Part shown: positions 128-24,168 of the stretch, one piece after another
How positions within the stretch are numbered: position 1 is the first letter of the stretch
How the letters are laid out: every line of letters starts with the position of its first letter
From: Candidatus Thorarchaeota archaeon
GTDB lineage: Archaea > Asgardarchaeota > Thorarchaeia > Thorarchaeales > Thorarchaeaceae
Assembly (NCBI GenBank): GCA_048884965.1
Contig: JBHLQH010000040.1
Coordinates: forward strand, 1-24,168
Reading direction: 5' to 3'
DNA: 24,168 nt
Made by a program: the position numbers and the translations under genes
Notes under the pieces: generated by a model
Databases searched by the model: none
The model's input: only the letters and a program-made list of their open reading frames with translations
What the model was told of the DNA's origin: nothing

Positions 128-208
128 TTCACAAGTATATGGTAGCAGATTTAGTATATATACCGAAGCCACAAGTTGGGGTCACAGAAGAAGGTCACAT
201 CTTGTGAC
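128..208 (-). promoter_or_regulatory. Candidate outward-facing archaeal promoter: TATATATA (155-162) with phased TGTGAC-like boxes
   Basis: On + strand GTCACA 194-199, GTCACA 181-186, GCCACA 168-173 (13-bp period), TTCACA 128-133, and inverted TGTGAC 203-208. Confidence 0.6.
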
Positions 209-209
209 T
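129..209 (-). repeat. Left copy of 81-bp inverted repeat (partner 24088-24168)
   Basis: 129-199 is the exact reverse complement of 24098-24168; 3 mismatches at 200-202; then 7 more matching bases. Confidence 0.97.
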
Positions 210-425
210 ATGAACCAAGTAGAAAGGGGTGAAGCGTGCTCTCGATATCTATAATCTAGAGCAAGTTGCAATAATCAAGGACTCTCTCTTGCATAATCTC
301 ATGCTTTGATTTGGAAGTAGAATATTACCTACTACGCTGCTTTCAGGGCAAGCTTAGCAAATTGCTTACAGTACCCTATCGGTTAGGTAATATGTGATAG
401 TGTACGACCCAAAAGACGATCGATA

Positions 426-644
426 ATGAATTCTACAAGAATCATAGGAATAGTACTATCTATTATCCTCTTCACAGTCTGGATTTTTGTTGATATGATA
501 TTCTTCCCATCGGTGGGCGAAACGCTCGGATATCCTGTCTTCGAGCTTGTTGCATACGGCTCATGGTTCGTGATAATTCTAATCATCCTTGTGATACTAT
601 CTATGACAGGCAACATTCCGACACGACAAAGCGGGAGTGAATGA
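426..644 (+). CDS. Small membrane protein, 2 predicted TM helices
   Basis: Two long hydrophobic stretches; ATGA overlap with the SDR start. Confidence 0.55.
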   Translation: MNSTRIIGIVLSIILFTVWIFVDMIFFPSVGETLGYPVFELVAYGSWFVIILIILVILSMTGNIPTRQSGSE

Positions 645-1489
645 TATTGTCTATGGCAGGAAAGACCTGTATTGTGACTGGCGCTAATTCAGGCATCGGA
701 AGAGAAACAGCCTTGGGTCTGGCAAAAGAAGGAGCCAAGCTGATCATGCTTGCAAGGAGCAAGCAGAAAGGTGATGAAGCAAGGAAATACATCATCTCTG
801 CATCCAACACTCAAGTTGACCTAATGCTTTGTGATCTTTCCAGTATGACTGAAGTCCGGAGATTCGCAAGAGAGTTCTCTACGAACTATGATAGACTCGA
901 TGTCCTAATCAATAACGCTGGTGCGGTTTTTTCCAAACGTGATGTGACTCCAGAGGGGTTTGAAATGACCTTTGCAGTCAACTATCTTGCTCCATTCTTG
1001 CTAACACATGAATTACTCCCGATTCTGAAATCAAGTGCACCTTCAAGAATCATTAATCTCACATCTGGACTTCATTCCAGAGCTAGAATTGATCTGGATG
1101 ATTTGCAGTCTAAGAGGAAATACAAGGGCATGGATGCATATCAGACCTCCAAGCTTATGGACTTGCTTTTCACTTACAAGCTTGCTAGGGAATTACAGGG
1201 CACTGGCGTTTCCGTCAATGTTGTGTCACCAGGATTTGTTGCGACGAATCTCGGAAGTAGTTCAGGGAGTCGAATGTCAAAGATCATGTTCGGGATGATG
1301 AAACCGTTCCAGTTAAGCCCTGCAGAAGGTGCAGAGACCTCCATCTATGTTGCAACCTCGTCGGAACTAGAGGGAGTGACAGGAAGGCACTTTGCCAAGT
1401 GCCAAGATAAGGACACATCTGATGAATCGTACGATACTGACTTGCAAGATGAGCTATGGAATCGAACAATCGAGATTCTCGGACTCTAG
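641..1489 (+). CDS. Short-chain dehydrogenase/reductase, retinol dehydrogenase/WWOX-like subgroup
   Basis: TGANSGIG Rossmann motif, INNAG, FAVNYLAPFLLT, catalytic YQTSK (YxxxK), PGFVAT. Confidence 0.95.
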   Translation: MILSMAGKTCIVTGANSGIGRETALGLAKEGAKLIMLARSKQKGDEARKYIISASNTQVDLMLCDLSSMTEVRRFAREFSTNYDRLDVLINNAGAVFSKRDVTPEGFEMTFAVNYLAPFLLTHELLPILKSSAPSRIINLTSGLHSRARIDLDDLQSKRKYKGMDAYQTSKLMDLLFTYKLARELQGTGVSVNVVSPGFVATNLGSSSGSRMSKIMFGMMKPFQLSPAEGAETSIYVATSSELEGVTGRHFAKCQDKDTSDESYDTDLQDELWNRTIEILGL

Positions 1490-21329: not shown

Positions 21330-22343
21330 ATGTCGAAGTTTGATTTATTGAAGCAGACATTTCTAGGGAATGTGGATGAACAGATCCCCCTTGCACTGTG
21401 GAAACATCATCCTGACGCTGATAGGTCCCCTGAGGGACTAGCTCAAGCGGAGGTTGCATTCCATAAGAAATTCGACTCTGATGTCATGAAGATTTCATTC
21501 TTTGGACACTATCCTTGTATCGATTTCGGATGTGAGGCTGAGTATGATGGTGCTATCACAGGCTCTACTACACTGACAAAAGCTGCAATAGGTCAAACAA
21601 GCGACTGGGAAGTGCTTGACAAGCCCGATGTTATGGAAGGCGAATTTGGAAACCAAGTACGAGCGGTTGAGCTAATTCAGAAGTATGCTCATGGCATTGT
21701 TCCGACTATGGCCACAATATTCGATGGCCCAATGGTTGCAGACAAGATTTGTGATAAGGAGCTTGCGAGGTATATGGATGAATCTCCTGAAGTCATCGAG
21801 TCCGCGCTTGACATCATAACAGATGTCATGATTGATTTCGCACGAGCGACTCTAGAGGCGGGCGCCGATGGGGTGTTTATAGCTTCACAACACTCCACCA
21901 TGGCATCAGTTTCTGATGAGCACTACAAAAAGTTCATTCTTCCTCAAGATGAAAAACTGATATCCAAGCTTCGTGGTAAGGCAAAATTCATTGTAATGCA
22001 TTTGCATGCGAGAGAACCCAATGAAGTCATTCGTTTTGACCCCATATCAAGAACCAAGGGTCTTGATGCAGTCAATTGGGAGGACCAGACATCTTCAATC
22101 GATCTACGAGAGGGCAAAAGCATTGCTAAGAAAACAGCCTTCGGAGGGATCGATCATAACGGTATTTTTAGAACTGGCACTCCAGAAGAAGCCCGTAGGC
22201 AAGTGATTGAGGCAATTGATGAGGCAGGTCTTGAGCATCTTGTGATTGCCCCCGGGTGCGTCATTACCATCGACACGCCTGAAGACAACATTCAAGCTGT
22301 CAAACAAGCAGTACGGTCTACCCTAACACATGAAGAAAAGTAG
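21330..22343 (+). CDS. Uroporphyrinogen decarboxylase (URO-D/MtaA) superfamily protein, not canonical HemE
   Basis: AGADGVF, FGGID, APGC motifs; lacks the HemE RQAGR motif. Confidence 0.85.
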   Translation: MSKFDLLKQTFLGNVDEQIPLALWKHHPDADRSPEGLAQAEVAFHKKFDSDVMKISFFGHYPCIDFGCEAEYDGAITGSTTLTKAAIGQTSDWEVLDKPDVMEGEFGNQVRAVELIQKYAHGIVPTMATIFDGPMVADKICDKELARYMDESPEVIESALDIITDVMIDFARATLEAGADGVFIASQHSTMASVSDEHYKKFILPQDEKLISKLRGKAKFIVMHLHAREPNEVIRFDPISRTKGLDAVNWEDQTSSIDLREGKSIAKKTAFGGIDHNGIFRTGTPEEARRQVIEAIDEAGLEHLVIAPGCVITIDTPEDNIQAVKQAVRSTLTHEEK

Positions 22344-22353
22344 GTGCACGAGC

Positions 22354-24069
22354 TTGACCAGAAACAAAGAGATAGCTGCAGTTTTGAATGAGATAGCGAT
22401 TCTACTTGAAATCGAAGGAACGGACAAGTTCAAACCCCGAGCATATTATCGGGCTGTAAGGACAGTTGGATCTCATGGCGAGGACATTGAGGTCCTATCT
22501 CAGCAGAACAAGCTGACCAGCATTCCCGGGGTAGGAAAAGGGATTGCGGAGGTCATCAAGGACTATCTTGATAATGGCTCAGCCAAGATACTTGAGGATC
22601 TTCGAGCAAAGATCCCTGTCAAAGTAAATGAGCTCAGCTCGATTCCCAGTGTCGGACCAAAGAAGATCAAGCTGTTCTATGATACGCTTGGGATAACGGA
22701 TATTGACTCCCTTGAGAAGGCGATACAAGAGAATAAAGTAGCTGTGCTAAAGGGCATGGGTGAAAGAACACAGGAGCAAATCCTTGAGGGAATTCGCTTG
22801 GTACGGGAGGGAATGAAACGAACAAGATTTGCTGATGCGGTGCCTTATGTTGAGCGTGTTCTTGGGATTGTGCGAGGAGTCCCTGGGGTACGTCGTGCAG
22901 ATGTCGCAGGGTCCTTTCGAAGACGCCGAGAAACAGTTGGCGATTTGGATATCCTCGTTGATGCCGATGACTCAAAGCCAGTGATGGATGCATTCGTGAA
23001 TATGGATGATGTAACAGATATCATGGCTCAAGGATCAACAAAGTCCTCTGTTCGTTTGAAATCGAATCTACAAATTGACCTTCGAGTGGTGCCTACAAAG
23101 AGCTTTGGGGCCGGGATGCAGTACTTCACAGGCAATATTGATCATAATGTCAGTCTTCGATCGATTGCGATAAAGAAGAAGCTACGGTTGAATGAGTATG
23201 GTCTTTTCAAAGGGGAGAAGGCAGTTGCTGGAAGCGATGAGGAGGAGATTTACCAATCATTGGGATTGCCTGTGATTCCCCCTGAGCTGAGAGAGGGAAA
23301 GGGCGAGATAGAGGCAGCGTTAGCAGGAAACCTTCCCGAATTGATTTCGCAATCTGACATTCGCGGAGATTTGCACAGTCATACAGATCAATCCGATGGG
23401 GTTCACACAATTGAGCAGATGCTGGATGCAGCTCAAGCCAAGAGATACAGCTACTATTGTGTTTCAGACCATACACAAAGCCTGACCATCGCCAATGGTA
23501 TGGATGAGAAACGCCTCCTACATCGGATAGACGAGATCGATGATCTGAATGCCTCTGGAAGATGGAAGATGAAGATACTAAAAGGTGCTGAGGTGGATGT
23601 GCTTGCAAATGGAGATCTTGACATCACAGATGACGTTCTTAGTCAGCTCGATCTTGTTACTGTATCAATCCACAGTAGAATGAAAGACACGAAGGAGAAA
23701 ATGACTGAGCGAGTATGTCACGCTCTGGAGAACAAGTTCGTTCACATGCTAGGTCATCCGACTGGAAGGTTAATCAATAAGAGGTCTGAGTTTGAGATTG
23801 ATCTGGCCAAGGTATTTGATACTGCGAAGGAATACAAGGTCGCGATGGAACTGAATGCACATCCAAGTCGCCTTGATCTTAATGCGGCCAATCTTCGGGT
23901 AGCCATTGGACTCGGACTGAAGATTGCTATTAACACTGATGCTCATCGAACTGAGGAATTGGACAATATGATCTTCGGGGTGTATCAAGCCAGACGAGGT
24001 TGGGTCACAAAGAACGATGTGCTCAATACATTCTCGCTGAAGGAGCTTCAAAAAGCCATCAAGAAGTAG
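22354..24069 (+). CDS. polX: DNA polymerase X with C-terminal PHP exonuclease domain
   Basis: HhH (IPGVGKG, SVGPKK), AGSFRR..ETVGDLD, QIDLR, YFTG; PHP DLHSHT..SDG, SDH, GAEVD, HPTGR, NTDAH; likely TTG start 22354 after AGGTG (ORF track gives 22330). Confidence 0.96.
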   Translation: MTRNKEIAAVLNEIAILLEIEGTDKFKPRAYYRAVRTVGSHGEDIEVLSQQNKLTSIPGVGKGIAEVIKDYLDNGSAKILEDLRAKIPVKVNELSSIPSVGPKKIKLFYDTLGITDIDSLEKAIQENKVAVLKGMGERTQEQILEGIRLVREGMKRTRFADAVPYVERVLGIVRGVPGVRRADVAGSFRRRRETVGDLDILVDADDSKPVMDAFVNMDDVTDIMAQGSTKSSVRLKSNLQIDLRVVPTKSFGAGMQYFTGNIDHNVSLRSIAIKKKLRLNEYGLFKGEKAVAGSDEEEIYQSLGLPVIPPELREGKGEIEAALAGNLPELISQSDIRGDLHSHTDQSDGVHTIEQMLDAAQAKRYSYYCVSDHTQSLTIANGMDEKRLLHRIDEIDDLNASGRWKMKILKGAEVDVLANGDLDITDDVLSQLDLVTVSIHSRMKDTKEKMTERVCHALENKFVHMLGHPTGRLINKRSEFEIDLAKVFDTAKEYKVAMELNAHPSRLDLNAANLRVAIGLGLKIAINTDAHRTEELDNMIFGVYQARRGWVTKNDVLNTFSLKELQKAIKK

Positions 24070-24087
24070 AGAATTCCACCTAATGAC

Positions 24088-24168
24088 AGTCACATATTGT
24101 GACCTTCTTCTGTGACCCCAACTTGTGGCTTCGGTATATATACTAAATCTGCTACCATATACTTGTGA
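24088..24168 (+). repeat. Right copy of 81-bp inverted repeat, running to the window end
   Basis: Reverse complement of 129-209; TGTGAC 24098 and 24111, TGTGGC 24124, TATATATA 24135-24142, TGTGA 24164. Confidence 0.97.

Follow-up and report, generated by a model that had tools for sequence, protein, structure and literature searches.

Why should a whole contig of an uncultured archaeon lie between two near-identical inverted repeats? The window analysed here is the entire 24,168-nt contig C40 of a Candidatus Thorarchaeota archaeon (genome G000; 99 contigs, 4.09 Mb), and the first-pass annotation, made from the sequence alone, had described it as bracketed by a near-perfect 81-bp inverted repeat. 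A repeat search of the window confirmed this, with arms of 81 nt at positions 129-209 and 24088-24168 that are 96 % complementary and lie 23,878 nt apart. When both strands are read, 71 nt (129-199 versus 24098-24168) are exactly complementary and the only three mismatches are adjacent (200-202 / 24095-24097), all of them within the 3-nt spacer of an operator palindrome, GTCACA-N3-TGTGAC. The runner-up inverted pairs in the window were at most 31 nt long with 71-86 % complementarity, which puts the 81-nt pair far above chance. The right arm begins, as had been noted, 18 nt after the stop codon of polX (22330-24069, plus strand), the gene for a PolX family DNA polymerase. The annotation left several explanations side by side, from a mobile element or inversion substrate to a regulatory or multi-copy cassette at which the assembly broke. 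We conclude that both arms are very probably control heads, belonging to two paralogues (copies L and R) of a multi-copy cassette in which a promoter is combined with tiny genes.

The full repeat unit, which we defined from two internal copies (C81:1280-1580 and C1:227863-228054) and from joined contig ends, is about 270 nt long. On its coding strand (the minus strand of the window for copy L) it opens with the palindrome GTCACA-N3-TGTGAC, followed by the boxes TGTGACC, TGTGACC and TGTGGCT with a 13-nt period. Next come a TATATATA box that precedes the start codon by about 40 nt, a leader of about 10 nt between the promoter and the first microprotein gene, and a first open reading frame (ORF1) of 33-34 codons. 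A gap of 5 nt that contains GAGGT separates ORF1 from ORF2, which has 26-29 codons, and a hairpin with a T-run closes the unit; some copies have a third short frame before the hairpin. With its operator, three phased half-site boxes, TATA box, two tandem microprotein genes and hairpin terminator, the cassette would be an independent transcription unit. Its operator and TATA promoter bear out the earlier idea of a regulatory cassette. Sigma-70 promoter predictions carry no meaning in an archaeon, and from a scan of this type we took only the terminator match.

The left arm (129-209, minus strand) comprises the operator, promoter and short 5′ leader of copy L, which would be transcribed leftwards, out of the window. 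Its palindrome lies at 194-208 and its TATA box at 155-162 on the minus strand, about 40 nt upstream of the ORF1 start. Beyond the arm follow ORF1 itself (21-122, minus strand; 33 codons, beginning MALATN and finishing TVVR) and the first five codons of ORF2 (1-15, minus strand), whose remainder is found at the end of contig C29 (26 codons in all, finishing AYFRR). The right arm (24088-24168, plus strand) is the matching control head of copy R, predicted to be transcribed rightwards. Here the palindrome occupies 24089-24103, the direct boxes counted from the sequence start at 24098 and 24111 (TGTGACC) and at 24124 (TGTGGCT) with the 13-nt period, and the TATA box lies at 24135-24142 on the plus strand. 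Position 24168 is the contig end, and the length of 81 nt reflects the stopping point of the assembler and no biological edge; leftwards, the repeat extends across 1-128 into contig C29. The earlier description of the copies as non-coding is therefore correct for the 81-nt arms only, since ORF1 and the start of ORF2 belong to the whole repeat unit.

Both arms carry an operator of the form GTMACA-N3-TGTGAC, TGTGAC boxes in phase and, about 40 nt upstream of the start, a TATA box. Members of the cassette family have an ORF1 of 32-34 codons beginning MALATN and, within about 5 nt, an ORF2 of 26-32 codons with an AY-x-RR end, and copy L has both. All 19 complete copies in the genus have an intact ORF1 of 32-34 codons. 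The copy of G000 that diverges most (C5/C11) departs from the others by synonymous changes alone in ORF2 and by an in-frame 3-nt indel in ORF1. The two frames look coding for these reasons, and no Pfam family was found for the ORF1 protein. One point weighs against the assignment of the right arm: copy R is truncated by the contig end 8 nt short of the expected ORF1 start, so that its ORF part lies past the contig and its completeness is inferred from relatives and from the tail at the start of contig C62.

Regarding this tail, C62 starts with a 27-codon frame ending in VLALEAT together with a hairpin, and a tail of the identical type closes the C81 copy. In both places the third frame overlaps an 11-pair hairpin with a T-run (L002:1581-1708 in G000:C81 and L093:16-110 in G000:C62), and the VLALEAT tail occurs also in G003:C20, G001:C129 and G005:C62. 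Between C81 and C62 the stem has changed at two pairs, each time in a compensatory way; the feature that is conserved here may be the terminator hairpin and not the 'peptide end'.

The cassette is not confined to the window. Searching with the first 210 nt of the window gave seven matches in G000 including its own (six other places), five of which touch a contig end, and at least five cassette copies are carried by this genome. These matches, together with shared 77-mers, agree with the suggestion of a multi-copy cassette at which the assembly broke. Among 24 other genomes of the family, 18 contain the cassette; 16 genomes from outside the family gave none. The operator palindrome occurs at seven distinct places in G000 (about 1.8 expected), namely in the five cassette copies and at two further sites. 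At these two sites the palindrome and a TATA-like box stand without the microprotein body, before a 424-aa bactofilin-domain gene (L091:136-150; G000:C2:49035) and before a 693-aa S9 prolyl-oligopeptidase gene (L092:227-241; G000:C88). The sites outside cassettes point to a small regulon under one putative DNA-binding protein.

One cassette copy lies about 6-15 kb from rpoB across several genera of the family (G000:C81:1280-1580 with rpoB at C7:147902-149017; G004:C117, G003:C20, G005:C19, G020:C45 and G014:C2). The C81 copy stays about 8-10 kb from rpoB in several genera, and C7 and C81 are graph neighbours. This rpoB-linked copy looks like the oldest one and a possible donor for gene conversion. 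Among the genes beside cassette copies, a CAAX/Rce1-like (CPBP) membrane protease gene (L093:125-1075; G000:C62, minus strand) is convergent with the tail of copy R, and MFS, EamA-type and ECF-S-like membrane genes follow other copies. A link of the tiny basic proteins to transport or processing at the membrane is possible. We noticed also a stretch in a genome of another genus (G042:C11; L049:1230-1270) with a GTGGC-N-TATATA-like core upstream of a C29-type gene, in opposite orientation and without TGTGAC boxes, which is possibly a relic or a shared type of core promoter.

To compare the copies, we aligned 23 heads from seven genomes of the genus in register and calculated identities over the 79-nt head. 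The right head of the window is 99 % identical to the C81 head and 96 % identical to the left head, and the left head shares 95-96 % with its paralogues. Its positional orthologue in a congener (G005:C26) reaches only 73 %. The mean head identity is 91 % within G000 and 77 % between genomes. Spacers outside the boxes likewise carry genome-specific signatures, and the left-site copy of G005 resembles the rpoB-linked copy of the same genome. Judged from these alignments, the heads are homogenised within a genome and paralogues are more alike than orthologues. The copies may thus be called 'recently duplicated', as the first-pass annotation had it, in the sense of a recent homogenisation. The simplest and most likely reading of the likeness is gene conversion with the rpoB-linked copy (C81) as donor, and selection on binding sites would add to conversion in keeping the heads alike. 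Head identity could owe more to such selection than to conversion, which weighs against this reading; selection alone is weakened as an explanation because the spacers outside the sites are genome-specific too. As far as sequence comparison can tell, the tiny-gene cassette is a true multi-copy regulon with control heads evolving in concert.

That the two heads lie so close to the contig ends is explained by the assembly. In G000, 40 pairs of contig ends share an overlap of exactly 77 nt and overlaps of 55, 99 or 127 nt do not occur, from which it follows that the assembler worked with a graph of 77-mers. Positions 1-77 of the window are the last 77 nt of contig C29, which gives a graph adjacency at k = 77. 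At the other end, the terminal 77-mer (24092-24168) equals C81:1304-1380 and is the first 77-mer common to copy R and the C81 copy; the contig stops exactly at 24168 because this 77-mer falls there. Contigs C5 and C11 are likewise joined via another cassette copy. The shortest contig in the bin has 3762 nt, so short repeat-internal contigs were lost at binning. Copies L and R would thus sit at both ends of a chromosomal gene block, both transcribing outwards, and be read as an inverted repeat, and the contig would end at both of them where the 77-mer graph collapses cassette copies. Collapsed repeats terminate contigs, so that every contig lying between two copies will look bracketed, and the 'bracket' is mostly an assembly edge effect around a repeat of known type.

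The end overlaps, the C62 tail and congener synteny combined give the scaffold C29 - C40 - gap of about 0.2 kb - C62, which we regard as highly likely. Two points count against it: the adjacency of C29 and copy L consists of one shared 77-mer, possibly present also in copy R, and the orientation of the segment in G000 leans on this 77-mer and on synteny. An attempt to assign the distal flanks to the arms from the 77-mer graph was dropped, as C81 runs through the terminal 77-mer of C40 and the contigs are not strict unitigs.

The segment between the heads (210-24087) holds ordinary chromosomal genes. It begins with a small membrane protein gene (426-641, plus strand) and ends with polX, and both are end points of an inversion in related genomes. 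Of the two flanks, the C29 block has as its first gene an ECF-S-like membrane gene with a TATA box of its own, and the C62 block is made up of an intron-bearing tRNA and a gene for an alpha/beta hydrolase. In G005 and G001 the order is C29 block - small membrane gene ... polX - C62 block, and in G004, G006 and G003 it is C62 block - small membrane gene ... polX - C29 block, with the segment flipped relative to its flanks. Both junctions are displayed by G005, and the entire arrangement lies on one contig in G006. In six genomes of other genera, the neighbours of the C29-type gene are small membrane, SDR or AHSA1 genes, and polX is in no case adjacent to it. A more distant metagenome-assembled genome (MAG), the single relative from a related-locus search of genome contigs and used here as outgroup, has the order URO-D - polX - cassette - C62-block gene. 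From the order in the other genera and in this MAG it follows that the C29-first order with a cassette after polX is ancestral. Two trees, one of a 3-kb rpoB region and one of 2.7 kb of URO-D and polX, both gave the topology ((G001,(G000,G004)),(G005,(G006,G003))) with supports of 91-100. This concordant topology requires at least two inversion events, whichever orientation G000 has. The segment thus appears to have flipped between species of the genus at least twice, with a long-lived ancestral polymorphism of orientation as the alternative to repeated inversion.

The cassettes may have taken part in these inversions. At gene resolution, the inversion end points coincide with the places of the two heads of G000, and inverted homologous stretches, probably of about 270 nt in full, could serve as crossover sites for homologous recombination. 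In G006 the cassette remained beside the C62 block, which a break at its promoter edge would predict, and in G004 the sequence AGTCAC persists 20 nt past the polX stop. It is conceivable, if rather doubtful, that the twin heads are crossover sites of a recurrent and possibly reversible 24-kb flip, kept competent by conversion from an rpoB-linked master copy, with both orientations maybe coexisting in the source sediment population. Several observations speak against it. In all three inverted genomes, polX is separated from the C29-type gene by only 42-82 nt without a cassette, and copy L is missing from G001 and copy R from G005. A crossover within two cassettes would keep both, so crossover mediated by the cassettes requires extra losses. 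The scenario in which both cassettes were ancestral and the segment inverted by crossover between them with no losses was rejected because of the missing cassette at this junction of the inverted genomes. A simple inversion that broke just outside the segment, at the same fragile intergenic spots, would account for the data equally well. The earlier proposal of an inversion substrate is still plausible and is indirectly supported by the inversion of this very segment between congeners at least twice, although the inverted genomes have no cassette at one junction.

The intron-bearing tRNA (143-151 nt, Rfam RF00005) adjoins the break point on the C62 side (L093:1922-2064 in G000:C62, minus strand; L036:3116-3266 in G004:C72) and was detected by Rfam and missed by ARAGORN. 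The stretch between this tRNA and polX differs in every genome; in G000 it contains the CAAX-protease-like gene and a 228-aa membrane gene, and in G005 an 809-aa gene. Large presence/absence differences within the genus were seen at 641-3673 and at about 1009-12335 of the window: G004 has no homologues of 641-3673 at the locus, and G006 jumps from the homologue of about 1009 to that of about 12335.

A rival explanation is a non-autonomous repeat resembling miniature inverted-repeat transposable elements (MITEs), or a multi-copy non-coding RNA gene, spreading between genes. A unit of about 270 nt that is intergenic, present in several copies per genome and variable in presence among congeners is what such an element would look like. 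However, terminal inverted repeats were not found and the 3′ boundary varies, while two frames are open in every copy, their lengths change by whole codons and ORF2 diverges by synonymous changes only. No Rfam family matched four cassette loci at E values up to 1, and one copy holds its place near rpoB across genera. We consider this explanation improbable.

Even less room is left for an assembly artefact, either a single physical copy put on both contig ends or a chimeric joint between polX and the repeat. In its favour, the contig end truncates the right arm, for which the bin contains no partner with a 77-nt overlap. But the two arms have three mismatches and different flanks, and Logan contigs of three samples from one study, which were built independently, cover polX through 24121 with 0 differences, so the joint to the right copy, for which reads across it had been requested, is very unlikely to be chimeric. 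These contigs, based on 31-mers, stop inside the repeat at 24121 and reach neither distal flank. The 54-mer at 24098-24151 has exactly three assembled places (both arms and C81), and in two samples its unitig is 2.9 and 2.8 times as deep as the polX contig, which fits these three places; in the third sample, 40-mer and 44-mer unitigs reach 2.7 and 3.5 times the polX depth. Summed unitig depths may include related organisms and are support for the copy count, no proof. In G001 an operator lies 21 nt after the polX stop, and an operator directly after polX is found also in the distant MAG. Exact-pattern searches in the metagenome contigs scanned gave no match for the joint of polX and the right copy or for the C62 start. 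The repeat, with its further copies in G000, is not single-copy, and we consider an artefact very improbable.

The idea that the arms are the ends of a composite transposon, with insertion-sequence ends moving the 24-kb segment as one piece, fares no better and we consider it very unlikely. Near-identical inverted repeats do bracket a gene block and the presence of the cassette at either site varies among congeners. Against mobility, Pfam scans found no transposase, integrase or recombinase family in the 25 ORFs of the window, in agreement with the first-pass annotation, or in the flanking genes of C29 and C62. We found no terminal inverted repeats at the cassette borders, of which the 3′ border varies among copies, and no target-site duplication when the filled left sites (G000, G005) were compared with the empty one (G001). 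The arms are outward promoters of conserved small genes, and two microprotein frames are all that the repeat unit encodes. The GC content of the contig (44.7 %) is normal for 24-kb windows of the genome (44.1 +/- 1.5 %), and in five congeners the genes of the block keep their order and lie between the same two flanking blocks, with variation in orientation and in some inner genes. A linear extrachromosomal element (plasmid or virus) with terminal inverted repeats and its own polymerase is extremely unlikely: the 24-kb contig, the inverted repeats near both ends and the DNA polymerase gene at one end would suit it, but the left arm begins only at 129 and the repeat runs into C29 via the 77-nt overlap, a homologous segment is embedded in a 56.7-kb chromosomal contig of G006, PolX is a repair polymerase and no protein-primed replicase, and the same repeat lies inside the chromosomal contigs C81 and C1.

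The remaining content of the bracketed segment is equally ordinary. It includes genes for SDR, AHSA1-like and PadR proteins, methyltransferases, ferredoxins, a split dikinase, a hydrolase, a deacetylase, URO-D and finally PolX, in which Pfam recognised pol-beta thumb, HHH_8 and PHP domains.

The closest known parallel to the paralogous cassettes is the tufA/tufB pair of Salmonella. According to Hughes 2000, as cited in PMC6735719, these inverted paralogues co-evolve by gene conversion and recombination between them inverts the region in between; the kinetics of conversion are treated in PMC5485169. As in tufA/tufB, we see inverted near-identical functional units that are homogenised, an intervening segment that is found inverted and no mobile-element machinery. 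Unlike in that system, the homology is 81 nt as seen and about 270 nt as inferred, compared with about 1.2 kb in tuf, the pair belongs to a family of at least five copies, and the host is an archaeon. In addition, the inversion here is seen between species only, and a crossover within the repeats is no more than possible. Reused or 'putative mobile' promoters of prokaryotes (PMC3575422) resemble the cassette in that a highly similar promoter region stands before unrelated downstream contexts at several places of the genome. The cassette differs from them as its promoter is always accompanied by the two small genes and in most cases by a terminator, which makes it a duplicated small operon rather than a promoter separated from its gene. 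With composite transposons, insertion-sequence pairs and MITEs it shares inverted repeats that bracket a block, several copies and assemblies that break there. It differs from composite transposons and MITEs in having no transposase, terminal inverted repeats or target duplications and in positions that are conserved across genera, and the cassette pair fails every tested defining feature of both.

The striking whole-contig 'bracket' is thus mostly a property of the assembler, and its practical yield is a usable scaffold for G000 (C29 - C40 - short gap - C62). The phenomenon is ordinary in kind; the new part is the meaning of the inverted cassette pair, and the lasting value lies in two results, heads that evolve in concert and an intervening segment that was inverted more than once. 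The locus provides a clean case from uncultured Asgard archaea of paralogous operon heads that mark the ends of a segment apparently inverted at least twice in one genus. If the heads are crossover points, they would be an archaeal counterpart of the bacterial tufA/tufB and rRNA-operon inversions, and they would offer a route to estimating recombination activity in organisms that are not yet genetically tractable.

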